In this document: piece after piece, positions 698 to 42,545 of the stretch | Position numbering within the stretch: the first letter of the stretch is position 1 | Layout: each line of letters starts with the position of its first letter | Source: a virus | Lineage: Duplodnaviria > Heunggongvirae > Uroviricota > Caudoviricetes | Length of the DNA stretch: 45,980 nucleotides | Virus record (IMG/VR): IMGVR_UViG_2529292882_000016 | Direction: 5' to 3' (one strand) | The notes under the pieces: model-generated | The model's database searches: none | The model's input: only the letters and a program-made list of their open reading frames with translations | What the model was told of the DNA's origin: nothing | Position numbers and translations under genes: made by a program

Positions 698-1060
698 GGG
701 GCTGATTCTGGATTCGACGGGATTTGCGAAACCCAAGGTGCATGCCGAGGGGCGGTTGGCCTCGTAAAAAGCCGCAAAAAATAGTCGCAAACGACGAAAA
801 CTACGCTTTAGCAGCTTAATAACCTGCTTAGAGCCCTCTCTCCCTAGCCTCCGCTCTTAGGACGGGGATCAAGAGAGGTCAAACCCAAAAGAGATCGCGT
901 GGAAGCCCTGCCTGGGGTTGAAGCGTTAAAACTTAATCAGGCTAGTTTGTTAGTGGCGTGTCCGTCCGCAGCTGGCAAGCGAATGTAAAGACTGACTAAG
1001 CATGTAGTACCGAGGATGTAGGAATTTCGGACGCGGGTTCAACTCCCGCCAGCTCCACCA
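698..1060 (+). ncRNA. ssrA: tmRNA (SsrA, transfer-messenger RNA)
   Basis: Starts GGGGCTGATTCTGGATTCGACGGG, contains the tag-reading-frame region (GCAAACGACGAAAACTACGCTTTAGCAGCTTAA) and ends GGGTTCAACTCCCGCCAGCTCCACCA; about 363 nt, matching E. coli ssrA. Confidence 0.95.
1034..1060. repeat. 27-bp direct repeat CGGGTTCAACTCCCGCCAGCTCCACCA (att core at the intact ssrA end)
   Basis: Identical 27-mer recurs at 41072..41098; flanking bases differ on both sides (g/a upstream, c/a downstream). Confidence 0.85.
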
Positions 1061-1161
1061 CTTTTGATAGGACTGCAACCGGACGGCGACAATAAAAACA
1101 GCCACTTACGGACACTGACCAGACAGTGAGCGGACTTAAAAAAGACAAAAATATACACGCA

Positions 1162-1177
1162 AAATGCACGTGCATTT
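1162..1177. repeat. 16-bp perfect palindrome AAATGCACGTGCATTT near the left prophage end
   Basis: Seen directly; half-site AAAATGCAC also occurs near the right end (41002..41010). Function not established. Confidence 0.6.
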
Positions 1178-1183
1178 CAAAAA

Positions 1184-1218
1184 AGCCTCTGATTGTGAAG
1201 CCAGAGGCTTTTCTATTT
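1184..1218. terminator. Bidirectional rho-independent terminator-like hairpin
   Basis: AGCCTCTG...CAGAGGCT stem followed by TTTTCTATTT on plus and preceded by an A-run (U-run on minus); lies just downstream of the minus-strand tail-fibre operon. Confidence 0.55.
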
Positions 1219-1258
1219 GTAACTAAGAGTAACAATTCAACATGACGCAACCTACCAA

Positions 1259-1831
1259 TTACGTAACGTCAAACGCCCGGATTGAAACCAAATCATTCAG
1301 ACTATTCAGCTCTTGCTTCATCTCCCGCTGACGCTGATAAATCTCGTCATTGCGATCGACCTGTGCCTGCGCCATTGCTGCCGCCAGTTCTTCAAGTTCC
1401 TGCATCGACAGTTTCACCTGTTGATTATCAGCGTCGCCCCACGCAAGGGCGGTTCGTGCCGTATCAGATTTTGCAGCCATTACCACCGGATAGAGACGGG
1501 CCAGTGAGTCTGGGCCAGCATTCCAGGTGCGACCGTTCCATTCGAACGTGAACGGCTGCGACTCCTGTTCTGCGCGCCATGCCTCGATTTCCATCTTTTT
1601 GGCATCTTTTGCCGCTGCGATAAGTTCGGGCGTGACGGTGAACGGGGCAATTTCACCCCATTTGCCGCTCTGTAACTCTTCCCAGATGCGCTGGCCTGTC
1701 GGTGCGGTATCATCCTGCATGGCGGTATACAGGACGAATTCCGTTTCACCCTCAAATAACACCTCGCAGTCAACCGCACCATTTTCAAGGTAATGCGCGT
1801 TTCTGATGCCTTTTACCGCTCTGATTTTCAT
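1259..1831 (-). CDS. Tail fibre assembly/chaperone-like protein (190 aa)
   Basis: Immediately downstream of the Stf-like gene in the tfa position; C-terminal helical region loosely resembles Tfa-type chaperones. Confidence 0.55.
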   Translation of the reverse strand: MKIRAVKGIRNAHYLENGAVDCEVLFEGETEFVLYTAMQDDTAPTGQRIWEELQSGKWGEIAPFTVTPELIAAAKDAKKMEIEAWRAEQESQPFTFEWNGRTWNAGPDSLARLYPVVMAAKSDTARTALAWGDADNQQVKLSMQELEELAAAMAQAQVDRNDEIYQRQREMKQELNSLNDLVSIRAFDVT

Positions 1832-1844
1832 GTTTTATTCCCCG

Positions 1845-4800
1845 TTACTCGATGCGCACAAACAGGCAGATACGACCGCTTGTTCCGTAAGAGTCCCTGA
1901 CCCCGGATAACGCCATATAACGCCCCGGAAAAGTGTACCCTGTTGCTCCTGCACTTGGTGTTGAACCGTAAGAGCCAGGCCCGGCAGAAGATATTGTGCA
2001 CGAAAGATTAACTCCGCCCAGTTGTGACCCCTGCACCACATCACCCAGGCCAATTTTGATTTCTTTATCCCCGGAAGTTGTTCCGCGATAAACAGCCAGC
2101 ACCGGAACACCCACTGCCGGGTATTTGAAATATGAGCCTGAGCCCGCCATCCTGGACAACAGGTACGCCAGTGAATCTCCGTCGTAGACAACTACCCGCG
2201 ATGACATGTTCCAGCTGTTATCGCTGTCGTTGTACCGGTACTGCATATAGTGAATGCAGTGTTCACCCTGATAATACTGGTTGTAACACATCAGGGTTTT
2301 AAATTTGCGGACTGTGTCAGATTCACTGTTGGCGTACGGGGACCACATCACGTCAATAATGCCGTTAAATTGCGTGGTACCGGTAAGCAGTTGTGATGAA
2401 TCTGTAATACTGACCGCATACCGCCCCGGCGTGACTTTCTTCAGCCATTCAACGAAATCAGACAGTCCCTCAAACGCCAGGGCTTCAGTGCTGGTAAATG
2501 CCTGACCAAATCCATGCATGCCGGACAGTGCCAGCCTGCCCGGTGTGCGGTCGCGGATATCACTCTGGGGTTCCATCGTCGCAGCCGCTTTCAGTTCAAG
2601 CTCCGTGCGCATGGCCTCAGGCGTGTCCAGTGCCAGTAATGCGCGGGCTTTTTCTGACAGTTGCGCCAGTAAAATCCGGCCCTCTGCACTGAAATAAGGC
2701 AGCGTGTTTTCTTCCGGTGTTATCTGGCTGACAGCCGTTAACACGTCATTAAGCGGCTGTTTACCTGCCAGTGCTTTAGTGACCGTTGTCGCAAAGTTCG
2801 GGTCATTACCCAGCGCCGCTGCCAGCTCGTTCAGCGTGTCCAGGGCTTCAGGTGATGAGTCAACCAGCGCAGCAAGCAGTTTGCGGACAAACTCCGCATT
2901 GGCTATTTCATTACCTGCTGCATCATCCGGCGGGGTTGGCGCGGACGGAGTTCCGGTCAGTGCCGGACTTTTCAGTGGCGCGCGGGCTTCAATCAGCGCA
3001 ATAAGTGAAGCCTCATCAACCTTCAGGTTTTCCCAGCCAACCAGAAAACCACCATCTGATGACACCGCGCAACGGTTATAATAAATATGACCATTAACAC
3101 CGTAATAAATAATTATCTTATAGGCATACTCATCATTCGGGCTGGTTTTAGGTTGTGGCCAGATAATTTCAATAACACCGTTTGTCTGAATGCCTGGCAC
3201 TACCACATCTGTGTCTGCAAATACGGCATAACGACCGGGTTTTGCTGTTTTTACCCAGCGGAGAAAATCAGTCCCTGATTTAAACTCTGTTCTGTCGCTG
3301 AATAACATCCCGAAACCGAACATGCCAGGAATCGCCAGTCGACCTTCGGTGCGGTCGTAAATATTCTCCTGTGCATCCTTCTGTGCTGCATTGCCAAGTT
3401 GTGGCGTCAGATTCGTCCAGGTGACCGGGGCGGAGATATTATCGCCACGAACGGTCATGAGTATCCGTCCGTCTTTTCCAAAAAACAGAACCAGCTTTGT
3501 TGCTGTCTGGCTTGTTTTGTCGCCCCAGCCATTATCCAGCCAGATAATTTCTGTTATTCCGGTTGTTTCTTCCGTTTGCGTGGAAAAGGTGTAATACCGT
3601 CCCGGGTGCAGGTTGTGCGCAGTTCTGGCTACAGTCGCCATATCGCTGGCAATAATTGCCGTACTTCCGGCGTCCGTCATTCCGTAACCAAATGCACCAG
3701 GTAGCGCAACACGGCCTTCCGAGCTGTCGTAAAGGTCTGTCTGAATGTCCCTTACCGCTGCGCTTTTCAGCTCAAGCTCATTGCGCATGGTTTCCACTGT
3801 GGCCTGTGCCAGCAGTGACCGGGCTTTTTCTGACAGTGGAGACAGTGAAGCATTTCCGTCCTGATTAAAGCACAGAAGATTATCTGCCCGTTCTTCCAGA
3901 TTACTGATTGCGGTTAACACGTCACTGAGTGGTTGTTTACCCGCCAGCGCGTTCATGATTGTTGTCGCAAACTCCGGGTCATTGCCCAGCGCCGCTGCCA
4001 GCTCGTTCAGTGTGTCCAGGGCTTCCGGGGACGAGTCAACCAGCGCAGCAAGCAGTTTGCGAACAAATGCCGCGTTCGCCATCTCCAGCCCGGTCGCATC
4101 GTCCGGTGGGGTTGGTGTGGTTGGCGTGCCGGTGAACGCCGGGCTGTCCAGCGGCGCTTTTGTTTTCGTCTCGTCCATGACGGTTTTGACGGCCTTCGGT
4201 GTGGCTGCCAGTTCTTCGCTGTCGTTATCCGTATCACTACAGAGTTGCACCAGGCCTTTTTCTGTCGTGGAAGCATTGCTTCCCTTCAGGTCATCAACTA
4301 TCCGTTGCGCCTCGTCCCTGTGCTGTTTCGCACCCTGCTCGCTTTTTGCAGCCGCTTCGGCGCTGGCTTTTGCCTCACCGGTCAGCGTTGCGGCATCAGC
4401 AAGTTTATCGACCGCTTTCTGGACTATCGCGTCAGCATCCTTGACAGCCTGTTCTGCGCGGGCGGCATCCTGTGTGGCAGATGATGCCAGCTGTGCCACC
4501 TGCTTTTTATCTTCGGCAACGGCTTCTGCATTCTGCTGTACGTTATCCGCCAGCGTCTCGCAGTCGCTCTTGATTTGTTGCGCATCAGCGACATGTTGCC
4601 CGGCCTGTTGTTCGCTTTCCGCTGCCGCTTCCGCGCTCTGCTGCGCCTGCGCCACCATTTCCTCAAAGCGTTTCACCACGTCGGGTTTGAGGTCGCCTTC
4701 ATCAAGGGCAGTCAGAAAGTCGTTCAGCGTGCCGGGCCTGGAGTCGTCGTATACAGCAATGTCGCCAACACAGTACTCATCGCGCCAGTCCTGTCTCAGA

Positions 4801-4982: not shown

Positions 4983-5005
4983 ATTTTTTCTCGCGATAAA
5001 TTAAA

Positions 5006-17842: not shown

Positions 17843-19066
17843 TTACGCAGCGGCTTTCTGGCGGGTTGCAGCCCCAATTTTCATCAGCTTAATCGCCTGA
17901 GAATCCACCAGCATACCGCCGGTTCGCTTGGTGGTATAAAAACCCACAAACGGTTTATTGGTGTACGGATCGCGCAGGATACGGGTACCGATGCGATCAA
18001 CGATGGTATAGCCACGTTTGAAGTTACCAAACGCAATGGCTTTTGCATCGGCAGCAATATCCGGCATCTGTTCATTCTCAACGATGCCATACCCTGCCAG
18101 AGAAGAAGGCTGACCCAGCTCAATACCCGGACGCCACAGATAATTTCCGTCGTTATCCTTCAGCAGACGAATGGCAAACAGGCTGCTGTTGTTCATCATA
18201 AACTTCGCGCCGCTGCGGTGCGCCTTGCGCAGGGTGTAAATCAGTTTAATGATCGCATCAGCAGTCACGCCGGAAGCCGCACCGGAAGCAATGTGCTGAA
18301 GTTTGCCAAACGCACGGGTCTTGTCATCTTCATCGGTGGACTCGTAAGCCAGAAAACCTTTTGGTTTTTTGCTGCCGTCGCCACTGGTAAAGGCAATTTC
18401 TTCCTGTTCGGCAAATTCCAGCGCCAGCTCACTGTTGATCCAGTCTTCCACATTGAAGAAAGCGTCATCGAGCATTTTCTGGGTGGCCTGCGGGTTGCCG
18501 TAGATTTCCCCCATAAAGGGTTCAATCAGCCCCAGTTTTGAGGTGGCGGTTTCCGGACGTGCATCCGTTTCCCCCACCCATCCGGACGTTGTGCCGCCCA
18601 GATTCACCAGTTTTTTATAATCCGAGCCCCCGAGGGTGATCACAGTGGCTTCCTGGCGCATCACCACCTCATCTTTCAGTAGCGTCAGAATGGTGCGATC
18701 CAGTTCTTCCGGAATGGCATAACCGCCATCTTCATCATTGCCCACCTGCAGCGCCTTACGCTCCAGCTCACGCAGGCCGTCTTCACGTCCCTTGCGCATA
18801 AATCCGATAAACGCTTCTTTGTGTTCACTGGCAACTTTATTTTGCGTGCCGCCTGCCGGACGCTTGATGTCTGCCAGCTCTTTTTCCAGGTCGCTTTTCA
18901 GGTTCTCCAGCTCGCTGATTTGCCCGTTCAGGCTTTCCACCTGTTCGGCCAGCTTGCCTTTTTCCTGTTCGATCGCGTCAATGCGCTTGTCGTTTTTTGC
19001 CTTAAAATCGTCAAACTTCTGCTGCAGCTCCTGCGCGACCTGCTCCACATCTTTAATGTCAGCCAT
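17843..19066 (-). CDS. Major capsid protein, HK97 family (407 aa)
   Basis: N-terminal coiled delta-like domain followed by a capsid-type domain; located after the prohead protease. Confidence 0.8.
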   Translation of the reverse strand: MADIKDVEQVAQELQQKFDDFKAKNDKRIDAIEQEKGKLAEQVESLNGQISELENLKSDLEKELADIKRPAGGTQNKVASEHKEAFIGFMRKGREDGLRELERKALQVGNDEDGGYAIPEELDRTILTLLKDEVVMRQEATVITLGGSDYKKLVNLGGTTSGWVGETDARPETATSKLGLIEPFMGEIYGNPQATQKMLDDAFFNVEDWINSELALEFAEQEEIAFTSGDGSKKPKGFLAYESTDEDDKTRAFGKLQHIASGAASGVTADAIIKLIYTLRKAHRSGAKFMMNNSSLFAIRLLKDNDGNYLWRPGIELGQPSSLAGYGIVENEQMPDIAADAKAIAFGNFKRGYTIVDRIGTRILRDPYTNKPFVGFYTTKRTGGMLVDSQAIKLMKIGAATRQKAAA

Positions 19067-24925: not shown

Positions 24926-25309
24926 TCATCGTTTCAACTGAAAGTGAGGTCCGTCTTTCAGTGTTTTCCAGTCCCCGCCCCATTCGATGGCAGTTCCCAG
25001 CTCTGCGGCAGCCTGCTTAAATGCCTGTGCGATTTTCTCGTACAGAGGCCAGTCCCATGACACCTGGCTGCCAATGTAGGCCACAACATCCACCGCATCA
25101 CCGGTCAGGTGGCGGCTGTTCATGGTCTGGCTCTTACCTTCTGCAACCAACTGTTTCTGGCGATACTTACTGCGCAGACCTTCCGTAATACCGAAATCAA
25201 CCTCCGTCAGCTCCAGTGCACGGCGAACGACAGCAACCAGCTGTGGTTTGACGCCCTCCAGATTTTTTTCACTGCGACGGCTGAATCTGAATTTACCCGA
25301 CATATTCAC
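24926..25309 (-). CDS. Endolysin, peptidase M15-type (127 aa)
   Basis: SRHLTGDAVDV (H-x6-D) and C-terminal DGPHFQL motifs typical of zinc D-Ala/L-Ala-D-Glu peptidase endolysins; follows holin-like genes. Confidence 0.75.
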   Translation of the reverse strand: MNMSGKFRFSRRSEKNLEGVKPQLVAVVRRALELTEVDFGITEGLRSKYRQKQLVAEGKSQTMNSRHLTGDAVDVVAYIGSQVSWDWPLYEKIAQAFKQAAAELGTAIEWGGDWKTLKDGPHFQLKR

Positions 25310-25581
25310 CTCAACAATGGAAAGATTTTTGTGACGTTCCCGCGTGCGCGTATCACCAGCACGCAGAACAGCAGGTTAAAAAACACTTCCAGCCAGCCCG
25401 TTGCTAACGGGCGACCACACAGATAGCTGAGGGGCGCAAAGGCATACAGCAGCATCAGCAGCCAGGCCAGCCATGACATCAGCGGTTTATGTCTGGAATC
25501 ACGGCGACGATAAAAAAAGAGCGTCAGCACGATAACCGTGCATAACGCTACATTCAGCAATCCGGGAATGTTACTTAACAT
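25306..25581 (-). CDS. Membrane protein, lysis-associated (start probably at the ATG at 25581)
   Basis: Three hydrophobic segments; between holin-like gene and endolysin. Confidence 0.4.
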   Translation of the reverse strand: MLSNIPGLLNVALCTVIVLTLFFYRRRDSRHKPLMSWLAWLLMLLYAFAPLSYLCGRPLATGWLEVFFNLLFCVLVIRARGNVTKIFPLLR

Positions 25582-25963
25582 TGCCGCCTCCTCCACCCCG
25601 CAGACGGGAGAACAGGCCGGACACCAGCGATGCAATATCCTGCTGGTGGATGAACGAGAGAATCTTCACCGACACCACTGACACCAGTACTGCACACAAT
25701 GCGTCGACAGGTGCACCGTCAAACCCTGTATGCTTTACCAGCCAGGATGCCAGAACCTCTGCCCCCAGCACGCCGATAATGAACGACACCAGAAAATGCG
25801 CCGCCACACGCCAGGCTGAAAGCGCCTGCGGAATTGTTGCCACAAATAACGCCCCGGCGAACGCACCAAACACAATCCCGAAATCCGTTCCGGTAAACAG
25901 CCCGAATACCGTCGCCCCGCCGAGCGCCACAGCCGTGCCGGAACCGGATAAGGGTTCAGACAT
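25571..25963 (-). CDS. Holin-like membrane protein (~130 aa; start at ATG 25963 with AGGAG RBS)
   Basis: Gly/Ala-rich transmembrane helices; first gene of the lysis cassette. The longer ORF to 26188 has no ribosome-binding site. Confidence 0.5.
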   Translation of the reverse strand: MSEPLSGSGTAVALGGATVFGLFTGTDFGIVFGAFAGALFVATIPQALSAWRVAAHFLVSFIIGVLGAEVLASWLVKHTGFDGAPVDALCAVLVSVVSVKILSFIHQQDIASLVSGLFSRLRGGGGGNVK

Positions 25964-26023
25964 ACTTTTTTCTCCTGTAAATAAAAAAGGGCCACCAGCG
26001 GCCCGTAAAAAAAACACCCCGTC

Positions 26024-26050
26024 AAAGGCACCCGCAGATGCCTTTTGTGT
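26024..26050 (+). terminator. Hairpin AAAGGCA...TGCCTTT followed by TTTTGTG
   Basis: Seen directly in the holin/cassette intergenic region; function uncertain. Confidence 0.3.
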
Positions 26051-26127
26051 GGTGTTATCTGATGTGATGTGCGCCGGGCGTGGCGCGGATATGAAAAAGG
26101 CCCGCCGCAGCGAGCCCCAGAAACAAC

Positions 26128-26149
26128 AAACCCGCTCGGCGGCGGGTTT
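26128..26149 (-). terminator. Hairpin AAACCCGC-TCGGCG-GCGGGTTT with U-rich tail on the minus strand (tR'-like candidate)
   Basis: 8-bp GC-rich stem; on the minus strand it is followed by TTTGTTGTTTCT; lies upstream of the holin gene in late orientation. Confidence 0.35.
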
Positions 26150-26192
26150 AAGCTGTGTGGCGAAGTAACCACTCTTAACACGATACAATACT

Positions 26193-26221: not shown

Positions 26222-26257
26222 ATCCTGAAGTACGTTTATCTATTGATATCTATAGAA

Positions 26258-27349
26258 ATGAAGAAAATCGAAAAACTGTTCACTGAAGTAATACGGAAGT
26301 TGCGCCATAAGAAATTTATGCGCTCGATAGCTAGTAAAAGAAGCACAACAGAAAGAAAACTAAAACGTAATGGAAGTTTAAAAAAAATCTCTCCAGAAAA
26401 AATACTTGCTCCAACCATACTTGATATTTACAAGGCGGAATATCATGAGAATGTGGTTAATTTTATAGAAAAAATAGAAAACAAAGCAAAAACAGGAAAT
26501 AAAAAGATATATATATGCTTCAGAAATACAATTCACATATCGGCTGCTGCTGGCTTATTTCTTCTTGCAAAACTAGAGACATTAAAAAGCAATCATAAGG
26601 GCTTAAAATATATCGTAGCCAAACCTCCAATTAAAACTTCATCAAAAGGAGAGCAGCACGTTGTTGATTCTGTTTTGAACAGAATCGGTATCTATGCAGC
26701 ATTAGGTGTTAAATCAAGAGAAATGAGAGAAACTCCGTCTGTAAAATGTTGGGAGGTAATTCGTGGCGAACTCGTAGATTCGGAAATTGCGGGGAACTTA
26801 TTAGAAACAATCACAGAAAGAATGGGTACCGATTATACAGATTTATATCGCCCCTTGATAGAAGCCATGTCTAATTCAGTAGAGCATGCATATCGAGACG
26901 ATTTATATGACTCAAATAAAAATAATAATAAAAATAAATGGTGGTGCTTTGCTGCAATTATGAACAACAAGTTAATATTACTAATTTGTGACCTCGGTGT
27001 CGGTATACCTAAAACGTTAAAACTCACTCAAGGTGAAAAGGTTCTTGCAAAACTAACCGAGTTCCTTGGTAAGCCATTAGTCCTTGATTCAGAACATATA
27101 AAAGCCTCATTGCAAGTTAAACGAACCCGAACAAAGCTTGGATACAGAGGGAAAGGAGGAACTGATTTACAATCTATCATAGAAAACTTTGAAAATGCAC
27201 AATTACGGATTATATCCAACAAAGGAAATTACAGATATACTCATCGTAAGAAAGCAAGACCAGAGTTAATGTGGGATGCCAAACATTCCATCAACGGTAC
27301 TATAGTTGAATGGAGCGTACCGCTACCAAATGAAGGAGACCCCCAATGA
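26258..27349 (+). CDS. GHKL-superfamily ATPase/kinase, RsbW/SpoIIAB-like C-terminal domain with ~190-aa N-terminal extension (363 aa from ATG 26258)
   Basis: N-box-like EAMSNSVEHAY, G1 box ICDLGVGIP (DxGxG), G2-like GYRGKGGTDL, with appropriate spacing; AT-rich; stop overlaps next gene's ATG (ATGA). Confidence 0.75.
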   Translation: MKKIEKLFTEVIRKLRHKKFMRSIASKRSTTERKLKRNGSLKKISPEKILAPTILDIYKAEYHENVVNFIEKIENKAKTGNKKIYICFRNTIHISAAAGLFLLAKLETLKSNHKGLKYIVAKPPIKTSSKGEQHVVDSVLNRIGIYAALGVKSREMRETPSVKCWEVIRGELVDSEIAGNLLETITERMGTDYTDLYRPLIEAMSNSVEHAYRDDLYDSNKNNNKNKWWCFAAIMNNKLILLICDLGVGIPKTLKLTQGEKVLAKLTEFLGKPLVLDSEHIKASLQVKRTRTKLGYRGKGGTDLQSIIENFENAQLRIISNKGNYRYTHRKKARPELMWDAKHSINGTIVEWSVPLPNEGDPQ

Positions 27350-27663
27350 AAACCTTATTTATCAAGGACTTTTCAAGATTCCCGGGACCTAGATACGAAA
27401 GGTTAGGTGAAAACAGTGGCGAAAAATTCCGCGATTTATTTTTGATACCAGCACTTAGCAAAGATCCAGACTTAGTCATTGACTTTGATGGTGTTTTTGG
27501 CTATGGCTCATCTTTCCTTGAGGAGGCCTTTGGAGGTTTGGTGCGTAAAGGGATAGAGCGCGAAAAATTGGAGAAGCTTAAGAAGAATCTCAAAAGTAAA
27601 GATCAATACATTATTGAGGAAGTAATTTCATATATAGATGATGCTCTGAGAGAACTAAAATAA
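27346..27663 (+). CDS. STAS-like protein, anti-sigma-factor-antagonist-like / DUF4325-like (105 aa)
   Basis: VIDFDGVFGYGSSFLEEAFGG resembles the SpoIIAA/RsbV loop (DLSGVSFMDSSGLG) including the Ser-Ser; translationally coupled on both sides. Confidence 0.7.
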   Translation: MKTLFIKDFSRFPGPRYERLGENSGEKFRDLFLIPALSKDPDLVIDFDGVFGYGSSFLEEAFGGLVRKGIEREKLEKLKKNLKSKDQYIIEEVISYIDDALRELK

Positions 27664-28124
27664 TGGACACTGACGTTACTCAGAATTTATGGACAATGCC
27701 TGCAACGATTATAGCGATTGCTGGCATTTTTTTAACAATATTAGGCTGGATAGTCACAGCAATATTTACTCGCATTAACAACGCGAAAAATTTAAAAAAA
27801 CTAGAAATAAATAGGCTTATTGATGAGTTATTTTATAAATTAGATTTCATTTATAGCGAAATGCTTGAATTGCTGCGAGACGATAAAAAAGACAAACAAG
27901 TCCTATATTACATTTTTACATCATCAGTAAGGCATGTTGAGTTTATTTGCGAGCGAATTGAGTTATTAGACAACAAGAAAAACAAAGACAATGGATTAAT
28001 ATCTGAATTAAGGCAAGCATGCACTAACGATGCGAAATATGAAAAAGAAAAAATAGGAACAACATTACATGAAATTCAAAGCGCTAATGAAAAACTCAAA
28101 AACAAATATCTAAAATCCTTTTAA
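27663..28124 (+). CDS. Small membrane protein with N-terminal transmembrane segment and helical cytoplasmic region (153 aa)
   Basis: Hydrophobic stretch MPATIIAIAGIFLTILGWIVTAIF then Lys/Glu-rich helices; start overlaps previous stop (TAATG). Confidence 0.65.
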   Translation: MDTDVTQNLWTMPATIIAIAGIFLTILGWIVTAIFTRINNAKNLKKLEINRLIDELFYKLDFIYSEMLELLRDDKKDKQVLYYIFTSSVRHVEFICERIELLDNKKNKDNGLISELRQACTNDAKYEKEKIGTTLHEIQSANEKLKNKYLKSF

Positions 28125-28130: not shown

Positions 28131-28165
28131 AAGGACCGGCGGCTTAGCCGGTTCCTTTTTATTTT
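28131..28165. terminator. Bidirectional rho-independent terminator between the cassette and Q
   Basis: AAAAAGGACCGGCGGCTTAGCCGGTTCCTTTTTATTTT: GC stem flanked by an A-run and a T-run. Confidence 0.7.
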
Positions 28166-28503
28166 ATTACACAAAGGCATCCATCAATAAACCCCATTGC
28201 CGTTTGCATCTCTTTCCGTATTGTTCCATCTGAACATTTCCGTTTTTTAGCAATAGCGCGTAATGAGATACCAATAACAAAGTGAGCAATGATCAACTCA
28301 TACTCTTCGGGTTTATACTTTCGCAACCGAGCCACACAACCGTCTATCATGATACCTTCGTCATCATCACACTGGAGACGTGACTTTTTACCGTGTGGTA
28401 AAAGCCCCTTGAAGCCTGCTGCTATCGGCTGCCAGTCCACACCACTGTTATCTGCTGCAGCCCAGGCCCCCCAACGATCTAAAACTTCGTACATATCACG
28501 CAT
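28159..28503 (-). CDS. Late-gene antiterminator Q, QuuD-like (114 aa from ATG 28503)
   Basis: MRDMYEVLDRWGAWAAADNSGVDWQPIAAGFKGL... and the Cys-rich QCDDDEGIMIDGC closely resemble QuuD-type Q proteins as I recall them; start overlaps upstream stop. Confidence 0.8.
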   Translation of the reverse strand: MRDMYEVLDRWGAWAAADNSGVDWQPIAAGFKGLLPHGKKSRLQCDDDEGIMIDGCVARLRKYKPEEYELIIAHFVIGISLRAIAKKRKCSDGTIRKEMQTAMGFIDGCLCVIK

Positions 28504-28760
28504 CAGCGCAGTACCTCCTGCACCAGTTTTTCGAACTTTCCAACTTTGGTTTCCAGCTCTGCCACACAATCCACCAGCTCATCCACTGCTTTTTGTGCGC
28601 GGTGTTTCGCCTGCATCAGTTCCCTGAGCGCTGGCACCATATCCTTACGAATGGCATCTTTTGTTACGCCTGTCTTTTCCAGTTGTTCCGCCTGTCGTAA
28701 CATTTCCTGTGCCTGTTTACGTAATTGTTCAGGCGTAAAAGTCATGGTCTGGTTGTTCAA
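28503..28760 (-). CDS. Hypothetical protein (85 aa)
   Basis: Helical, between DnaB-like gene and Q; overlapping start/stop junctions. Confidence 0.45.
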   Translation of the reverse strand: MNNQTMTFTPEQLRKQAQEMLRQAEQLEKTGVTKDAIRKDMVPALRELMQAKHRAQKAVDELVDCVAELETKVGKFEKLVQEVLR

Positions 28761-30148
28761 AAGAAACGCTCCATCTTACTGCTGTCGGTTCGCTTATTGC
28801 TGTATCTGCGCGGCTGGGGCTGCTGCATTGGGGTGGAAAGAATCTGTGCGCTTTCCTGATCCACAGGCAGAAAATGTCCGTTATAAAAACGCCGGTAAAT
28901 CGTTCCCAGAGAACCGTTACGTTGTTTCGTGATATTGATTTCTGCGATGCCCCTGGCCTGCGTATCCGGGTTGTACACTTCATCCCTGTAAAGCATCAGA
29001 ATGATGTCTGCATCCGCCTCTATTTCTCCGGAATTTTTCAGGTCTGAGTTCATAGGGCGTTTATTGGGCCTGGACTCCACACCACGGGAAAGCTGGCTCA
29101 GCGCAATCAACGGAAAACCACCGGATTTTGCCAGGCCTTTAAGCCCCTTTGAGATTTCACCCACGGCAAGGTCATGACGCCCCGTGGTTCGGGTTTTTAT
29201 CAGCCCGAGATAATCAACCACCACCAGCGCCGTTTCCGGATGTTTAATCAGGTGATGTTTCGTTGTTGCGCATATCTCATCAATGGTCAGGTTCGCCTGG
29301 TCCACCATCCAGATATTGCGCCCGGTCATCCGCCCCACTCCTTGTGAGAAACGTGCCCAATCTTCGTCTTCAAAGTGAGTGACAGATTTCAGGCGTGATA
29401 CCGGCATTCCTCCAGCCGCAGATACCATGCGTTCACCAATCTGGATGTTCGCCATTTCCATTGTGAACAGAAGGACACCATGCCCCTGCTCAGTCACCTT
29501 GTCGATGATATCCAGCGCCAGTTCGGTTTTGCCCATTGACGGACGAGCCGCAATAAATACCAGATCGCCGGGCTCCATGCCGCCTGTTTTTGCGTCCAGT
29601 TCATCAATACCGGTCATCAACGTTCTGGATTTTTCCAGTCCCTGATTCCGGCATTCAACACGCTCAACCACTTCCGGAAGCACATCATCAATATGTACCG
29701 GCTGAATAACGCCCTTTTCCGTCGACAATGAGGCCATCATGTTCTGCGCATCCTTCAGGGCATCTTCAGCTGCTTCACAGGTATGCGCATCACGTAATTT
29801 CTGCAACGCCTCATTCAGCGTCTTTTCTGCATCACGCAGTGCGGCATTGCGACGCAACGCTGCAACATAGTGCTCCAGTGAAGACTTCACCCAGGTTTTA
29901 CGCCCGGTATCAGTAATCACCGGAGCAAGTTCCGGCATCTCATTGCACAGCAGCACAGGATCAATCACACCTGAAACACGAGCCTGTCTGCAGATGCCTG
30001 TGTAGATATCCCGATACGCTCGTACAGAAAAAACGTCCGCAGGTAGTGTGGCCAGAATATCCATCACTTCAGGATCTGCCCCACGCAGAAAGAACGCGCC
30101 AATGACAGCGCCTTCTAGGTCATCGTTACGCCAGACTGGTGTTGTCAT
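28757..30148 (-). CDS. Replicative DNA helicase, DnaB family (~463 aa from ATG 30148)
   Basis: Walker A-like AARPSMGKTELALD and RecA-like C-terminal domain; ATG at 30148 overlaps the stop of the loader-like gene (ATGA). Confidence 0.85.
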   Translation of the reverse strand: MTTPVWRNDDLEGAVIGAFFLRGADPEVMDILATLPADVFSVRAYRDIYTGICRQARVSGVIDPVLLCNEMPELAPVITDTGRKTWVKSSLEHYVAALRRNAALRDAEKTLNEALQKLRDAHTCEAAEDALKDAQNMMASLSTEKGVIQPVHIDDVLPEVVERVECRNQGLEKSRTLMTGIDELDAKTGGMEPGDLVFIAARPSMGKTELALDIIDKVTEQGHGVLLFTMEMANIQIGERMVSAAGGMPVSRLKSVTHFEDEDWARFSQGVGRMTGRNIWMVDQANLTIDEICATTKHHLIKHPETALVVVDYLGLIKTRTTGRHDLAVGEISKGLKGLAKSGGFPLIALSQLSRGVESRPNKRPMNSDLKNSGEIEADADIILMLYRDEVYNPDTQARGIAEINITKQRNGSLGTIYRRFYNGHFLPVDQESAQILSTPMQQPQPRRYSNKRTDSSKMERFF

Positions 30149-31032
30149 GCAGCCACACCTCTGATACGAGAACGGTAGCTGGGCCAGTTGAACGACAACC
30201 AGTTGCGCCCCCCGTCTGTGATCCTGTCGGCAATGCGGGGGCTGATGAACGCCCACAACTCTTCCGGTGAAAGGTTGCTGATCAGGATGGTGGGCAGGAT
30301 ACTTTCGTACCGGGCATTGATAATTTCCTGCAAAATAGCCATTTCAGCCGCGCTGCCAAACTGAACACCAACTTCGTCGATGATCAGCAAATCCATTGAC
30401 GCATAATGCTCAATAACTTCATCCGCTGTTTTTTCGCTGTCATTCCGCCAGCAGTTTTTCACAGCACGGGTAAGGCGCATCACGTCGGTGATCTCCACGC
30501 TGGCCAGATGATTACGGATGATGTGTTTTGCCATTGATACCGCCAGATGATTTTTCCCGGTACCGCAACTGCCAGTCATAACAAGACTGGTGCCGTTCTC
30601 CAGCATATCTGGCCAGTTCTCCGCATAGCGGCGACAGGCTGCAAGATTTCTGGCTGCGTCAGGATTAACCTCCAGATAGTTATCAAACTCACAGTCCCGA
30701 AAACGCAGGGCAATTCCGGCGTTATCAGTCAGCTCTTCCGCCTTGAGGGACGACAGCTCCATGGTCAAATCGTTGGCCTCAGCGATCAAGCAGTCAGGGC
30801 AGCATGAAATTTTTTCTCTGTCCTCGCCATTGCGATCGCTCCACACCAGTATATGCGTATGGTATTTACCGTGTTTTTCGCAATACCCGCGACCTTCACG
30901 CATCAGGCAGGAACGATAAGGCCATGGCTTTTCGCCCTTCTGAGCAAATGCAATCTCTGCCCGTAACTCATCCATTCGCGCCTGTAGTCTTGTTTGTTGT
31001 TCACGCAGGTTAAACGTCATCATCGCTGTCAC
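30145..31032 (-). CDS. DnaC/IstB-like AAA+ helicase loader with N-terminal Cys/His zinc-finger-like region (295 aa)
   Basis: Walker A GSCGTGKNHL and Walker B LLIIDEVG; between O-like and DnaB-like genes. Confidence 0.75.
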   Translation of the reverse strand: MTAMMTFNLREQQTRLQARMDELRAEIAFAQKGEKPWPYRSCLMREGRGYCEKHGKYHTHILVWSDRNGEDREKISCCPDCLIAEANDLTMELSSLKAEELTDNAGIALRFRDCEFDNYLEVNPDAARNLAACRRYAENWPDMLENGTSLVMTGSCGTGKNHLAVSMAKHIIRNHLASVEITDVMRLTRAVKNCWRNDSEKTADEVIEHYASMDLLIIDEVGVQFGSAAEMAILQEIINARYESILPTILISNLSPEELWAFISPRIADRITDGGRNWLSFNWPSYRSRIRGVAA

Positions 31033-31033
31033 C

Positions 31034-31858
31034 TCAGAATGTCAATTTGTCACTGGATTTACCGAATTTGTCAGACATGGCACCAAGGCCAGACAGGACA
31101 TCGACCTGTCGCTGTCGCCCACCTCCGGGAGCGGCTGGCTGTTGCCAGAAATCTTCGAAGTGACGATCGGGGCCAAAGAACGTCGCAGCCTGCTTCACGA
31201 ACTGTGTGCCGGTATTTCCTGTAGCACGTACCCAGGCGGCATAACGTCTCACACCATCAAGCATGGTCTCCGGTTTTATTCCCTCCCTGAGACGGGCTTT
31301 CCAGGCTTTGAAGGCTGCTGACTTGGAATTGCCACCAGCACGTTTGGGATATTCCTGCCAGACCTGTTCAAATTCCGGTGAATATTCCTGTCGGGCGGAA
31401 CGCGCTGGTGCAGACGCGTCAGCGGATGCGCCAATAGTTGATTCATTGACTGGTTCTTTGACTGGTTCAAAAGAGTGACTGGTTCTGGGTGAATCTCCTG
31501 CACTACCCCCTGGTGCAACTCCTGCACCACCTGGTGAATTTGCTGCACTAGGTAGTGAATTATTTGCACTACCACCTGGTGAATCTTTTGCACCATCAAG
31601 ACGAAGAAGATAAATATTGCTCGAGTTCCCTTTTTCACCTTTCCGGGAAACTTTTTTTACCAGTCCGGATTCACAAAGAGCCGTAATATGATTCATCACA
31701 GAACGTTTGCTAATCTCGCACTGATCAGCAATATGCTGATAGCTGGGCCAGCACTCGCCCTGATCGCTGGCATTATCAGCCAGCTTAATCAGAACCAGTT
31801 TTCGCAACGGATTTCCCACGCGAATTTTCATCGCTTTCACCATCAGCTCCATGCTCAT
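31034..31858 (-). CDS. Replication initiation protein, O-like, N-terminal winged HTH (274 aa)
   Basis: HTH-like N-terminus; central Gly/Ser/Pro linker encoded by the iteron array; first gene of the replication module. Confidence 0.6.
   Translation of the reverse strand: MSMELMVKAMKIRVGNPLRKLVLIKLADNASDQGECWPSYQHIADQCEISKRSVMNHITALCESGLVKKVSRKGEKGNSSNIYLLRLDGAKDSPGGSANNSLPSAANSPGGAGVAPGGSAGDSPRTSHSFEPVKEPVNESTIGASADASAPARSARQEYSPEFEQVWQEYPKRAGGNSKSAAFKAWKARLREGIKPETMLDGVRRYAAWVRATGNTGTQFVKQAATFFGPDRHFEDFWQQPAAPGGGRQRQVDVLSGLGAMSDKFGKSSDKLTF
31447..31620. repeat. Candidate replication origin: three TGACTGGTTC repeats plus about four ~21-bp iterons with core CACCACCTGGTGAAT, inside the O-like gene
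   Basis: TGACTGGTTC at 31447, 31459, 31476; iterons CTGCACTACCCCCTGGTGCAACT, CCTGCACCACCTGGTGAATTTG, CTGCACTAGGTAGTGAATTATTTG, CACTACCACCTGGTGAATCTTTT at 31498..31589. Confidence 0.5.
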
Positions 31859-32285: not shown

Positions 32286-32929
32286 TGATTACGGCGGAAA
32301 GCAGTGTGATTCAGGCTGGTTTCAGCCTCATGGAATGCTTCAATACAGCTCTCGTAGTACCGCATTGTGCGCAGACTTAACCCAAGCTGAAGCATCATCA
32401 GGCCATCAAGGGTGATGTAATAACCACGCAGGGAGTCACCATAGATGTGATAAGTGCCCGGTATGAAATTGCGGGTAAAAAAATCGCGCGAGCAGTTCAG
32501 ATACTCGATTTTGTCGACGATGTTCTGGTGCATGCGCTTGAAGTGGCAGGCAACATGCAGGGAGAAAATAACAGCTTTGCCGTTGACGACTTCGATTTTC
32601 AGGTATGGGGAAGTTGGGACTGTAGCCATGATGGCAGCCTCCGTATGCAATGGATAACTTCCACCACCGGAGCTGCGAAACTCATGGGTGGTGAACTGAA
32701 CAGGGTTCGCAGTACCGGCGCATACGGAAACCGGCGAGCCTTTCGGCTCCCCTGCCCAGCCCACCATAATTCTGGCGTGCGCGAGCATGGACGATAAAAA
32801 AGACGCTGGCGCGTCGTATATCGCCGTATGCAATTCCGGGCTGCGACCCCCGGCACCCGCTTTATAAGGTGCAGAGACAGTGTAACGTCCCGAAATTGCA
32901 GAATCAATATTTAGGCTTGAAACATTCAT
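32267..32929 (-). CDS. Hypothetical early protein (220 aa)
   Basis: Long ORF in the early-right operon; no motif recognised. Confidence 0.45.
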   Translation of the reverse strand: MNVSSLNIDSAISGRYTVSAPYKAGAGGRSPELHTAIYDAPASFLSSMLAHARIMVGWAGEPKGSPVSVCAGTANPVQFTTHEFRSSGGGSYPLHTEAAIMATVPTSPYLKIEVVNGKAVIFSLHVACHFKRMHQNIVDKIEYLNCSRDFFTRNFIPGTYHIYGDSLRGYYITLDGLMMLQLGLSLRTMRYYESCIEAFHEAETSLNHTAFRRNQWEARP

Positions 32930-34759: not shown

Positions 34760-34840
34760 CACACTGGATACTCTGTTATCCAAGAATGTTAAACGCGAGA
34801 ACCCAAAGTATCAAGAAATTCTGTTACTTTAGTATCAGCA
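34760..34840. promoter_or_regulatory. Divergent promoter/operator region (OR-like) with repeated GTATC/GATAC half-sites
   Basis: GGATACTCTGTTATCC (34766..34781), AGTATCA at 34807 and 34831, TCTGTTAC at 34822; between the divergently transcribed cro-like and cI-like genes. Confidence 0.4.
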
Positions 34841-34860
34841 GCCATGAAAGGAGAAGAAAA

Positions 34861-35517
34861 ATGAAATCTTTAGGTGAACGCCTCATCAACGCACGACAAA
34901 AAGCTGGGTTAACGCAAGATGCGTTGGCTAAAAAAGCAGGGGTCACCAGAGTTGCAATCAGTAAAGCCGAGCAAGGCCTTACAAAAAGTTTCAACGGTGA
35001 CACCCTTTTTAAAGTCGCAGCTGCACTGCAGTGTTCACCGCAGTGGCTTCAGAACGGAGATGAAAAAGATAAGCATTGGGAAAATAATGTTAAGAGCTGC
35101 CCACAGAGAGACACAGCACACTCTTACCCTGTAATTAACTGGGTTCAGGCAGGATTATTCGCAACTGCTGGTGATGACTACAACATGTATGATCAGGATA
35201 ATTGGAGGCATTCTGTAAAATACGCTGGTGAGAGGGGGTTCTGGCTGGAAGTGCACGGAGACTCAATGACTTCGCCCGTAGGAATAACATTTCCTGAAGG
35301 AATGTCGATCCTTGTCAACCCAGATAAAGAAGTTTTTTCAGGGTGTTACGTCATCGCCAGAAAAAAATCTACCAATGAAGCAACATTCAAAAAATATATT
35401 TCTGAAATGGGAAAGGCGTTTCTAAAGCCCCTTAATCCACAATATCCAATCATAGAAATGGACAATGATTGCGAAATAGTAGGTGTTGTGGTTGATGCCA
35501 GGTGGGATATTTTCTGA
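34861..35517 (+). CDS. cI-type repressor, HTH plus LexA-like S24 peptidase domain (218 aa from ATG 34861)
   Basis: N-terminal HTH (LTQDALAKKAGVTRVAISKAEQG) and C-terminal S24-like region (WLEVHGDSMTSPVGITFPEGM...VIARKK...); AAGGAG RBS. Confidence 0.85.
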   Translation: MKSLGERLINARQKAGLTQDALAKKAGVTRVAISKAEQGLTKSFNGDTLFKVAAALQCSPQWLQNGDEKDKHWENNVKSCPQRDTAHSYPVINWVQAGLFATAGDDYNMYDQDNWRHSVKYAGERGFWLEVHGDSMTSPVGITFPEGMSILVNPDKEVFSGCYVIARKKSTNEATFKKYISEMGKAFLKPLNPQYPIIEMDNDCEIVGVVVDARWDIF

Positions 35518-38770: not shown

Positions 38771-38804
38771 CTTATACGCCCGGCAGGCCGCCGGGCTAAG
38801 GGAA

Positions 38805-39170: not shown

Positions 39171-39201
39171 AGTTCTCACTATTCAGAGAACAGGAGAAAA
39201 A

Positions 39202-39444
39202 ATGTTCGCTTTGATTAATCAGGGACAACTGTATACCGACAGTGCCGGTTACCCGATAAAAATTATTCGCTGCATAAATAACACTGTGTTGTACAGAAGA
39301 ATGGATGGGCAAATGCAGTCGATAAAAATAAACGATTTTAATGGACTGTTTGAACGGATCGATCACCAGGAATACCGACAAATTCTGGCAGAAACAGAGC
39401 AGGAAGCTCATCTGAAAAAATTACGGGCCATGAAAAGGAAGTAA
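39202..39444 (+). CDS. Hypothetical protein (80 aa)
   Basis: AGGAG RBS upstream of ATG 39202. Confidence 0.45.
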   Translation: MFALINQGQLYTDSAGYPIKIIRCINNTVLYRRMDGQMQSIKINDFNGLFERIDHQEYRQILAETEQEAHLKKLRAMKRK

Positions 39445-39447
39445 AGA

Positions 39448-39594
39448 ATGAATAAAGCCTTTGAGCTATGGGTGCGCCAGCGTTACGGCAATCGCTATGA
39501 CCTGACGCGAGATGTTGACGGTTTCTACTGCCGTGAAATTGTGAAACGAATGTTTGAAGTGTGGTGCCACTGCCGTGGGCTGAATGTTGTATGA
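39448..39594 (+). CDS. Hypothetical small protein (48 aa)
   Basis: AAGGAAG RBS; ORF MNKAFELWVRQRYGNRYDLTRDVDGFYCREIVKRMFEVWCHCRGLNVV; below the ORF-track size cut-off. Confidence 0.3.
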   Translation: MNKAFELWVRQRYGNRYDLTRDVDGFYCREIVKRMFEVWCHCRGLNVV

Positions 39595-39602
39595 GGTGAA
39601 CT

Positions 39603-39812
39603 GTGGGGCTGGATTGCGTACCTATATCAACCTACTGCCGCAACGCAGGAGAAACGGTTGATGCCGTTAACAAACGGATACAAAGAGGAATATGGAAAGA
39701 AGGGGTACATGTATTAAAAGTCGACGGAGTTAAAGAACGTTGGGTCGACTTAATGGAGATTACAAAATGGGCAAGAAAGAACAAGGATCACTATCTCTCC
39801 CTAGAGGAGTAA
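39603..39812 (+). CDS. xis: Excisionase-like protein (69 aa; GTG start assumed)
   Basis: Small basic protein immediately upstream of and overlapping int, as in lambda xis-int; winged-helix-like composition. Confidence 0.5.
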   Translation: MGLDCVPISTYCRNAGETVDAVNKRIQRGIWKEGVHVLKVDGVKERWVDLMEITKWARKNKDHYLSLEE

Positions 39813-40939
39813 CTATTCGCCAGCATAAAACTGGTAGCACTCTGGTTATCACTTTTACATATAAAGGGGTTCTGTGTCGGGAGCCCCTCTCCAGAATGGA
39901 AGTAAACGCGCGCGGTGTGAAGTACGCTGAGCGTCTGCTGGGAGAAATAAAAAATCAGATTATCGATGGTACCTTCGAATATGCAAAATACTTCCCCAAC
40001 TCCCAAAAGCTGGAGTTGTTCGGGGGAGTGAAAAAAAACAAAAATATAAAATCTTACCTGGATGAATACCTGATTATCTGCCAGAACCGTAACCTGTCAC
40101 CATCGACAATTAGAGGTTATGAAAAATGCCTGTCGGCGCTGTCAGCATTGCATAAATTTCATGTATCAGAACTGACACCTGCAGTACTAAAAAACTGGAT
40201 CGCCAGCAGAAAAACAAAACTGAAAACTATCCGCAATAATCTTTCATTCTTGCGCAGCGCCATAGATGAAGCGGTGACCGATGGTTTGTTAACAATAAAT
40301 CCTGTCACGCTAGTCAGCGCCAGCCGGTATCACGTATTGGACAACACACCAGGCAGTGATGATTACGAGGTCGATCCTTTTACACCAGCGGAGACGGCAG
40401 CAATCTATGACGCCTGTCATTACCCGGAATGGCGAAATCTGTTTCGCTTTGCCTTTAATACAGGACTGCGCAGCTCAGAATTGTGCGCGTTGCGCTGGAC
40501 GGATATAGACTTTATCGGCAACACCGCGCATGTTCAGACTGCAAGCGTAGTCGGGGTAATCAAAAGCACCAAAACAAAAGCCGGCACCCGCAAAGTGCAA
40601 CTGAACAGCGAAGCGCTGGCGGCTCTTCAGGCACAAAAGCCCTACACGGCGCTAAAGAGCGACTTCATATTCAGCGATCCGAAAACTCGCGCTCCTTGGG
40701 CAAACGCAGATGCGATCCGAAAAAAAGCCTGGGTACCAACCCTTAAAAAAGCTGGTGTACGCTATCGCAATCCGTACCAGACACGCCACACGTTCGCCAC
40801 TCGGCACATTAGCCAGGGCGTTAACCTGTTCTGGCTTGCTGGTCAGATGGGGCATAAAGGACCGGAAATGCTGTTCAGACATTACGGCTCTTACCTTGCA
40901 GAATACGATGGAAAAACGGCGATTTCTGCAACCCCGTAA
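39767..40939 (+). CDS. int: Tyrosine integrase, lambda Int-like (390 aa from ATG 39767)
   Basis: C-terminal catalytic region with RHTFATRHISQG...RHYGSYL (R/H/R/Y-type motifs); transcribed toward the att repeat at 41072. Confidence 0.85.
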   Translation: MGKKEQGSLSLPRGVTIRQHKTGSTLVITFTYKGVLCREPLSRMEVNARGVKYAERLLGEIKNQIIDGTFEYAKYFPNSQKLELFGGVKKNKNIKSYLDEYLIICQNRNLSPSTIRGYEKCLSALSALHKFHVSELTPAVLKNWIASRKTKLKTIRNNLSFLRSAIDEAVTDGLLTINPVTLVSASRYHVLDNTPGSDDYEVDPFTPAETAAIYDACHYPEWRNLFRFAFNTGLRSSELCALRWTDIDFIGNTAHVQTASVVGVIKSTKTKAGTRKVQLNSEALAALQAQKPYTALKSDFIFSDPKTRAPWANADAIRKKAWVPTLKKAGVRYRNPYQTRHTFATRHISQGVNLFWLAGQMGHKGPEMLFRHYGSYLAEYDGKTAISATP

Positions 40940-41071
40940 CGGCAAAATATTTCAAAATGTTGTACAGAATCAGGACGTTACCGGGACAACAATATGTACG
41001 TAAAATGCACATAATTCATTGTTTGAAAAAATAAATCGTTCATATTCAATAAATTGGATTAATCACGATCA

Positions 41072-41098
41072 CGGGTTCAACTCCCGCCAGCTCCACCA
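41072..41098. repeat. Second copy of the 27-bp att direct repeat (displaced ssrA 3' end)
   Basis: Identical to 1034..1060; the downstream flank (AAATTCTCCATCGGTGATTACC...) carries a terminator hairpin and is then followed by a P4-type integrase, as at the chromosomal ssrA locus. Confidence 0.85.
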
Positions 41099-41145
41099 AA
41101 ATTCTCCATCGGTGATTACCAGAGTCATCCGATGAAGTCCTAAGA

Positions 41146-41178
41146 GCCCGCACGGCGCAAGCCCTGCGGGCTTTTTTG
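41146..41178 (+). terminator. Rho-independent terminator (probable original ssrA terminator)
   Basis: GCCCGCA...TGCGGGC stem followed by TTTTTTGTG. Confidence 0.6.
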
Positions 41179-41303
41179 TGCCCTCAATTTGTCCCGCGAA
41201 GTCCGAAGAAAACTAATTAAATCCGATCCTTTTAGGCACCTTGTTAGGCACCTCATAAAGCTTTATTGTTTTTTGAGGTGCCTAAAACTATGGAAACCCG
41301 GCA

Positions 41304-42545
41304 ATGGCAAGACAAACCAAACCTCTATCCGTTAAAGAAATAGAATCAGCCAAACCCAAGGAGGCGGACTACGTTCTCTATGATGGCGATGGCCTTGAGC
41401 TACTCATTAAATCCAGCGGGAGTAAAATCTGGCAGTTTCGCTACATTCGCCCTGTCACCAAGAAACGAGCAAAGAAGAGCATAGGCTCCTACCCGTCAGT
41501 TACCCTTGCCGATGCCAGAAACTACCGTGCAGAGTCCCGCTCACTACTGGCTAAACAGATCGATCCGCAGGAACATCAGCAAGAACAATTGCGCAGTTCG
41601 CTGGAAGCCAAAACCAACACTTTCCAACTCGTAGCTGAACGTTGGTGGAATGTGAAGAAAGCCAGTGTGACAGAGGACTATGCGGAAGATATCTGGCGCT
41701 CTCTTGAAAGAGACGTCTTTCCTGCGATTGGCGACGTTAGCGTTACAGATATTAAAGCTCATACACTGGTTCAGGCCGTACAACCGGTTCAGGCCAGAGG
41801 AGCACTGGAAACTGTTCGTCGCCTGTGCCAACGTATTAATGAGGTCATGATCTATGCCCAGAACACAGGGCTGATTGATGCTGTTCCCAGCGTTAATATC
41901 GGTAAAGCCTTCGAGAAGCCTCAGAAAAAGAACATGCCCAGCATTCGACCGGATCAGCTACCTCAGTTAATGCAGACGATGCGAACAGCCAGCATTAGCC
42001 TTTCCACACGCTGCCTGTTCATGTGGCAACTTCTTACTATTACCCGCCCTGCCGAAGCGGCTGAAGCTCTCTGGGAAGAGGTAGACATAGAAGCGCGAGA
42101 GTGGAAGATTCCTGCAGCACGCATGAAAATGAACCGCGACCATACTGTTCCATTGTCAGATGAAGCAATTGCGATACTAGAGATGATGAAGCCGTTAAGT
42201 GGAAATCGAGAATTTATCTTTCCCAGCCGCATCAAGCCAAACCAGCCGATGAACAGTCAGACCGTAAACGCATCGCTAAAACGCGCAGGTTTTGGTGGGG
42301 TGCTCGTTTCACACGGCCTGCGATCTATCGCCAGTACAGCCCTTAATGAGCAGGGATTTCCACCTGATGTTATTGAGGCTGCACTTGCTCATGTGGATAA
42401 GAATGAGGTTCGTCGTGCGTATAACCGTAGTGATTATCTTGAGCAGCGACGGCCTATGATGCAGTGGTGGGCTGATTTTGTGATGGCTGCAGATCACGGT
42501 AGTATGATTGAAGGAGGGATAAAGGCAATGCGGTTAGTTGGATGA
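41304..42545 (+). CDS. intA: P4-type tyrosine integrase, CP4-57 IntA-like (413 aa)
   Basis: N-terminus MARQTKPLSVKEIESAKPKEADYVLYDGDGLELLIKSSGSKIWQFRY and C-terminus ...HVDKNEVRRAYNRSDYLEQRRPMMQWWADF typical of P4-family integrases; about 200 bp after the ssrA 3' end. Confidence 0.85.
   Translation: MARQTKPLSVKEIESAKPKEADYVLYDGDGLELLIKSSGSKIWQFRYIRPVTKKRAKKSIGSYPSVTLADARNYRAESRSLLAKQIDPQEHQQEQLRSSLEAKTNTFQLVAERWWNVKKASVTEDYAEDIWRSLERDVFPAIGDVSVTDIKAHTLVQAVQPVQARGALETVRRLCQRINEVMIYAQNTGLIDAVPSVNIGKAFEKPQKKNMPSIRPDQLPQLMQTMRTASISLSTRCLFMWQLLTITRPAEAAEALWEEVDIEAREWKIPAARMKMNRDHTVPLSDEAIAILEMMKPLSGNREFIFPSRIKPNQPMNSQTVNASLKRAGFGGVLVSHGLRSIASTALNEQGFPPDVIEAALAHVDKNEVRRAYNRSDYLEQRRPMMQWWADFVMAADHGSMIEGGIKAMRLVG

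Follow-up and report, generated by a model that had tools for sequence, protein, structure and literature searches.

Tandem arrays of integrative elements at tRNA genes and transfer-messenger RNA (tmRNA) genes were reportedly described by Williams in 2003 under the title 'Traffic at the tmRNA gene'. In Islander, 125 tandems of at least two were counted among 3919 islands, and the tmRNA gene was the target with the strongest enrichment (PMC4383910); Bobay et al. reported that the tmRNA site in Escherichia coli and Salmonella hosts almost all prophage genera as well as other elements (PMC3603311). The tmRNA gene, ssrA, is also a listed insertion site of Shiga toxin (Stx) phages. Here we describe the locus held in the viral record IMGVR_UViG_2529292882_000016, a stretch of 45,980 nucleotides (nt) referred to below as the window, in which a prophage of about 40 kb stands between ssrA and a second element with an integrase of the P4/CP4-57 type. 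Very probably, a temperate myovirus resembling phage phiP27 integrated by means of its integrase (Int) at the 3′ end of ssrA when this gene was already followed, in the host chromosome, by a degenerate island of the CP4-57 type.

The window opens with chromosomal smpB upstream of ssrA (1–483, + strand), a 160-amino acid (aa) open reading frame (ORF) that is 100% identical to the region annotated as smpB in E. coli GE3. The intact ssrA at 698–1060 (+ strand) was identified by ARAGORN, with the tag ANDENYALAA, and by Rfam (RF00023, 295.8 bits). The 27-bp sequence CGGGTTCAACTCCCGCCAGCTCCACCA is present as two exact copies, at 1034–1060 and 41072–41098, both on the + strand; no further copy with up to three mismatches was found in the window, and shuffled sequence gave a match in 0 of 100 cases. 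Because mismatches bound the repeat on both sides, its length is exactly 27 bp. The left copy, located by pattern matching, is the 3′ end of ssrA, as the tmRNA gene is intact and identical to that of strain K-12 at 363 of 363 nt; the copy takes in most of the T arm, the 3′ acceptor strand and the CCA, these parts being read from the sequence, and forms the core of attL. The right copy is a displaced ssrA fragment on the + strand, and is at once the core of the phage attR and the ssrA-proximal att core of the island. It has the same orientation as ssrA and the intact tRNA or tmRNA gene (tDNA) lies at the other end of the prophage, as the Islander criteria describe. The initial annotation, made from the letters of the window alone, had named this repeat at these positions and taken the left copy as the end of an intact ssrA, and both statements were confirmed.

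Strain GE3 provides the empty site. Its gene order is smpB, ssrA, an integrase gene, a hypothetical gene and IS3, and the phage is absent. Window positions 1–1060 are 100% and positions 41072–45980 are 99.9% identical to GE3, and the two matches overlap there by exactly the 27-bp core; the window thus amounts to a chromosome of the GE3 type to which 40,011 bp (1061–41071) and one duplicate of the core have been added. Judged by this alignment, the pattern is the signature of site-specific integration, and the segment precisely missing from GE3 is an stx-negative phiP27-like myovirus prophage of 40,011 bp. We rebuilt attP by linking the prophage end that precedes the right copy to the prophage end that follows the left copy. 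The rebuilt attP is contiguous in the genome record of Escherichia phage LMessi, in the order int, P arm, ssrA core and P′ arm, and the repeat copies are therefore the true prophage ends. The LMessi attP includes the ssrA core and a P′ arm homologous to that of the window, and the P′ arm at the left prophage end (1061–1225) is nearly identical to that of LMessi (window positions 1061–1200). That the repeat might be a chance match or an annotation artefact, and might not bound the 40-kb segment at all, found no support and is refuted by the lack of any match in shuffled sequence, the precise empty site and the contiguous attP of a free phage, leaving this reading with practically no probability. 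The earlier claim that the repeat marks the prophage boundaries agrees with both the GE3 site and the LMessi attP, and the earlier reading of a phage of about 40 kb between ssrA and a pre-existing ssrA island is supported.

The phage phi467 was also considered as a source of a free-phage attP, and was rejected in favour of LMessi because its record holds the displaced core followed by the intA of an adjoining island and thus represents an over-extended prophage region. Two 'phage genome' records, phi467 (LN997803.1, 32815–34231) and Kp4866-6 (OK490421.1), contain a displaced ssrA core and then the terminator and intA of a CP4-57-type island. As they include these parts of the adjoining island, the boundaries of both records overrun the true attR. 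In Kp4866-6, a Klebsiella record, the Int is 96% identical to the island Int of the window, and the same tandem is therefore present in another genus. Because prophage callers and some deposited 'phage' records do not stop at the displaced ssrA fragment but extend into the integrase of the adjoining island, the boundaries in such tandems need to be set at the repeat.

The left end of the island (41099–41303, + strand) matches GE3 without a difference and K-12 at about 84% identity. It contains a hairpin terminator, found by a pattern scan at 41159–41173, with a longer stem at about 41146–41179 read from the sequence. The island integrase, a 413-aa protein of the P4/CP4-57 type (41304–42545, + strand; Pfam PF13356, PF22022 and PF00589), starts 205 bp past the right repeat, in line with the annotated terminator followed by a P4-type intA about 200 bp on. 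The sequence after the right copy had been taken for the native downstream flank of ssrA. About 120 nt 3′ of the right copy are indeed nearly identical to the K-12 sequence downstream of ssrA, terminator included, and alignment to K-12 showed that the right copy, not the left, bears the K-12-type flank. However, CP4-57 begins 15 bp within ssrA in the K-12 annotation; because this places the 'flank' inside CP4-57, the sequence represents the island's left end, not ancestral chromosome. The K-12 sequence past the far att site of CP4-57 differs from the flank of the right copy.

The island shares with CP4-57 the target, the 3′ end of ssrA, and the position and orientation of intA about 200 bp from ssrA. 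Its Int has 85% aa identity to K-12 IntA, and the N-terminal domain matches structures named 'CP4-like integrase'. The term 'CP4-57-like' thus fits the att site, spacer and intA, which together cover about 1.43 kb at 79% nt identity, but not the remainder: blastn of 41072–45980 against the whole of CP4-57 matched only this first 1.43 kb, the sole other match being 88 bp outside CP4-57, near pinH, and the gene content of CP4-57 (alpA, yfjH–ypjF) was not encountered in the part of the island within the window. What follows intA is a truncated gene (42684–44987, − strand) encoding the C-terminal 767 aa of a 1248-aa protein (phrog_18693, profile positions 488–1255 of 1258), of which strain NCCP15648 has an uninterrupted version of 3747 bp. 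An IS3 copy (from 44972 to 45980 and past the window end, + strand), which matches both IS3 copies of GE3 and the GE3 annotation and contains an HTH_Tnp_1 ORF at 45028–45336, interrupts this island gene at the same position in the window and in GE3. In GE3 and NCCP15648, the distal end of the island was deleted by another IS3, into ypjA. Because the distal end is deleted in both relatives, this island type looks old and immobile. The second member of the tandem has its own integrase (41304–42545), as expected of an element in a tandem array, though it is a remnant and not a complete array member, as its distal fragment is not within the window and has been lost by deletion in GE3 and NCCP15648.

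Integration of the phage into an ssrA already followed by the island is by far the most economical reading, since the island is riddled with insertion sequences, the phage appears intact and GE3 has nearly the same flanks. We propose the following scenario. An attP holding a 27-bp copy of the ssrA 3′ end would have recombined, mediated by Int, with the 3′ end of ssrA. A crossover inside the 27-bp identity block would have rebuilt the complete gene at attL, where the P′ arm and a terminator of the phage now come next, and the old 27 bp, with the island attached, would have been pushed 40 kb downstream as attR. The displaced core would then have come to lie with the phage int and P arm on one side and with the island spacer, terminator and intA on the other. 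Both int genes do adjoin the displaced repeat, as the initial annotation had pointed out, the phage int ending 132 bp (at 40939) before it and the island integrase starting 205 bp after it.

Some points weigh against this order of events. As the repeat copies are identical, the sequence tells neither where the crossover took place nor in which direction the event ran. The identity block of the CP4-57 att sites in K-12, CCGCCAGC[T]CCACCA, is about 15 bp long and lies wholly inside the 27 bp, so that the displaced copy could, in principle, have been the target of an island integrase. In addition, the best match to the left junction in the genome collection was 97.2%. If the order were reversed, the phage would have entered an island-free ssrA first, and the CP4-57-type island would later have integrated into the displaced 27-bp fragment, where the fully contained identity block offers a possible secondary target. 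We consider this very improbable, because genomes with flanks matching those of the window at 100% and 99.9% identity have the island right next to ssrA, the island, cut by IS3 at the position seen in GE3 and with its distal end deleted in both relatives, has the marks of an old, immobile element, and the phage module occurs beside many different neighbours.

The distribution of the two elements in other genomes bears on this last point. The int–attR module was found at no less than 94% nt identity in 25 of 5426 complete E. coli genomes, and in all seven of the genomes examined for its location it lay in the ssrA region; the proximal ssrA was seen directly in A36 and WAT, and through left-junction matches in cq9 and C5. 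After the displaced core, cq9, numer 3, E94 and ETEC1732 carry four other P4-type islands, and A36 has no island there, a degenerate core being followed by about 0.7 kb to glaH. In WAT, a second, lambdoid prophage, whose integrase is related, comes after the displaced core, and the island of the window comes after that, giving a triple tandem: the segment 2870357–2965183 comprises ssrA, a siphovirus-type prophage of ~44 kb with the int/xis module of the window, a lambdoid prophage of ~48 kb and the island. The island of the window adjoins ssrA directly, with the phage absent, in GE3 and NCCP15648, and FORC_069 and 2014C-4135 gave a match pattern like theirs.

In C5 and DX6, the junction of phage int, core and island is as in the window, at 99.1% and 95.1% identity, respectively. 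The junction is thus present in other lineages and able to spread by recombination, which would allow the composite to have been brought into the chromosome as a block, by homologous recombination after transduction or conjugation from a donor with a ready tandem. This course would alter only the place of integration and not the structure. The prophage of C5, moreover, differs from that of the window, with a left junction of 92.3% identity and a span of about 48.5 kb, and independent integrations or phage mosaicism explain the shared junction equally well. We regard import of the composite as very improbable, and integration of the phage in a chromosome with the island in place as the reading to be preferred.

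Each element found directly after the ssrA core has its own GC-rich hairpin and T run within about 50–150 nt, and the proximal element, whichever it is, therefore supplies the terminator of ssrA. In the window, the P′ arm contains a hairpin terminator at 1181–1212, and the 3′ trailer of ssrA and its nearest terminator would now be phage-derived. Two further sites in this chromosomal region resemble remnants of integration. The GE3 locus holds, at its positions 18590–18608, a further ssrA-like pseudo-site, CTGCCAGCCCACCA, without the T, like psaA of K-12; it sits between a pinH-like recombinase remnant and ypjCB and suggests another ancient integration scar downstream. The K-12 sequence 2777972–2778140, just past the distal att site of CP4-57 (psaA), is nearly the same as the left end of the second prophage of WAT and has homology to the P′ arm of the window phage (1061–1225) as well; it resembles a scar left by an earlier phage that integrated at ssrA more than it does pristine chromosome.

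The phage should be capable of precise excision that restores the ssrA–island junction, because the repeat copies are perfect and xis, int, the CI/S24 repressor gene and all late genes are full-length. In K-12, excision of CP4-57 deletes T357 and inactivates tmRNA (PMC10107115), the distal copy in K-12 being without T357. Unlike that excision, which damages tmRNA, excision of the window phage between perfect copies should, as predicted from the sequence, leave the restored junction undamaged. The question of whether excision of the island would harm ssrA is probably moot. It is conceivable, though we think it unlikely, that insertion of the phage shifted the proximal att core of the island off ssrA and thereby uncoupled an excision switch, and that the shared hybrid core together with two int genes might allow cross-excision or co-mobilisation of the island by the phage Int and Xis.

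The integration module of the phage consists of an excisionase gene, xis (39603–39812, + strand; phrog_2917 excisionase, E = 1.5e-40), and int (39767–40939, + strand), encoding a 390-aa tyrosine recombinase with an N-terminal arm-binding domain (Pfam PF12167 and PF00589). The ATG start of int at 39767 agrees with RefSeq models in relatives, and the translation contains readable motifs consistent with the active-site residues of tyrosine recombinases (R, HxxR, H and Y). The gene had been annotated as 'lambda-like int'. The architecture bears this out, as the phage Int shares with the lambda-type heterobivalent system the catalytic domain, the arm-binding domain and an adjacent Xis, but a close sequence kinship with lambda Int was not found: the match to lambda Int was marginal (E about 7e-5) and limited to the core-binding region, and that to the Int of Tn1549 was better (8.5e-11). 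The aa identity to the Int of phiP27 was only 28%.

The P arm of the phage (40940–41071) has one AAATGCAC motif at 41003–41010, and the P′ arm has a palindromic (inverted) pair of AAATGCAC at 1162–1177. The joined attP thus contains three copies, one in the P arm and two in the P′ arm, and these are kept in LMessi. No direct repeats were found within each att arm taken separately, and the candidate arm sites emerged only in the joined attP. From this arrangement we infer that the AAATGCAC copies are candidate arm-type Int sites. LMessi, phi467 and the Cronobacter phage phiES15, temperate phages that integrate at ssrA, have an Int of the same family, and their int–xis modules are 79–85% nt identical to that of the window, whereas their morphogenesis modules are unlike that of the window prophage. 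The int/att module is swapped among myoviruses, phages with P2-like tails and siphoviruses.

The remainder of the prophage is of the phiP27 type. The Stx2e-converting myovirus phiP27 (NC_003356), which resides in yecE, is collinear with the window prophage at 93–97% nt identity over most of the genome. Those morphogenesis, lysis, replication and repressor genes of phiP27 that have a counterpart in the window are essentially full-length there, without internal stops and mostly with 90–100% aa identity. The late structural block (1259–23383, − strand), assigned by Pfam, PHROGs and phiP27 counterparts, runs in the order of a DUF4376 tail-fibre assembly protein, a 1045-aa tail fibre, baseplate, tape measure, sheath and tube, HK97-type capsid, protease, portal, and large and small terminase. 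It is accompanied by lysis genes for an M15 endolysin and two holins (24926–26188, − strand; phiP27 counterparts and Pfam) and by genes for a Q-like antiterminator, a DnaB helicase, a DnaC-like loader and a replication initiator (28159–31858, − strand; phiP27 counterparts, PHROGs and Pfam). The gene for a CI-type repressor (34786–35517, + strand) encodes helix–turn–helix and S24 peptidase domains (Pfam PF01381 and PF00717) and its product is 99.5% identical in aa sequence to L11 of phiP27; these domains suggest SOS-inducible control, and the prophage may thus be inducible. Pfam and PHROGs confirm the assignment of the sheath, HK97-type capsid, terminase, M15 endolysin, DnaB, Q-like antiterminator and CI-type repressor.

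Two small RNA genes lie on the − strand of the prophage, a C4 antisense RNA at 32684–32771 (Rfam RF01695, 83.3 bits) and isrK at 32796–32872 (Rfam RF01394, 57 bits). The C4 antisense RNA and the isrK-like RNA stand side by side (32684–32872) and adjoin antirepressor genes of the Ash/Rha type. This region resembles a P1/Gifsy-like antirepressor control module, here in a phage of the phiP27 type.

Four modules differ between phiP27 and the window prophage, namely the terminase, the tail-fibre tip, the stx2e region and the integration module at 39598–41071. The Int of phiP27 targets yecE, whereas the window phage is integrated at ssrA with a different module of Int, xis and attP. In place of the GIY-YIG gene, the methylase gene, the two tRNA genes and stx2e of phiP27, the window has the segment 26185–28457. 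Because stxA2e was listed among the matched phiP27 features, the window was considered as a carrier of stx2e; this was rejected, as blastn and tblastn showed that the toxin region is replaced, and no match to StxA or StxB was found in the window by tblastn.

The cargo module at the stx2e position (26243–28124, + strand) comprises three ORFs on the strand opposite to the late genes, encoding a 368-aa ATP-binding-like protein, a 105-aa DUF4325 (STAS-like) protein and a 153-aa protein (phrog_34309). The 368-aa protein is called ATP-binding by some sources, and one homologue has PF13581 (HATPase_c_2); homologues of the cargo proteins were found across Enterobacterales, Vibrio and Pseudomonas. Pfam gave no domain for the 368-aa and 153-aa proteins or for the 767-aa island protein, and PADLOC gave no defence-system match for the three cargo ORFs or the 767-aa island ORF. 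The cargo at 26243–28124 is a candidate moron or defence module.

The integration of prophages and islands, and of tandem arrays, at the 3′ ends of tmRNA genes is established, and the arrangement described here is ordinary; it leaves the current understanding unchanged and adds an exactly mapped case of the serial use of a tmRNA gene as an integration site. In known tandem arrays at tDNAs, the intact tDNA forms one end, the elements are separated by a displaced 3′ fragment of it that has kept its orientation, and each element has a separate tyrosine integrase; the locus in the window shares all of these features and differs from such arrays in nothing of principle. Mildly new is only that a phiP27 backbone is combined with an integration module specific for ssrA and has cargo other than toxin genes where phiP27 carries stx2e; this shows that a Stx-phage backbone of the phiP27 type can exchange its integration module from one for yecE to one for ssrA, with other cargo at the toxin locus.

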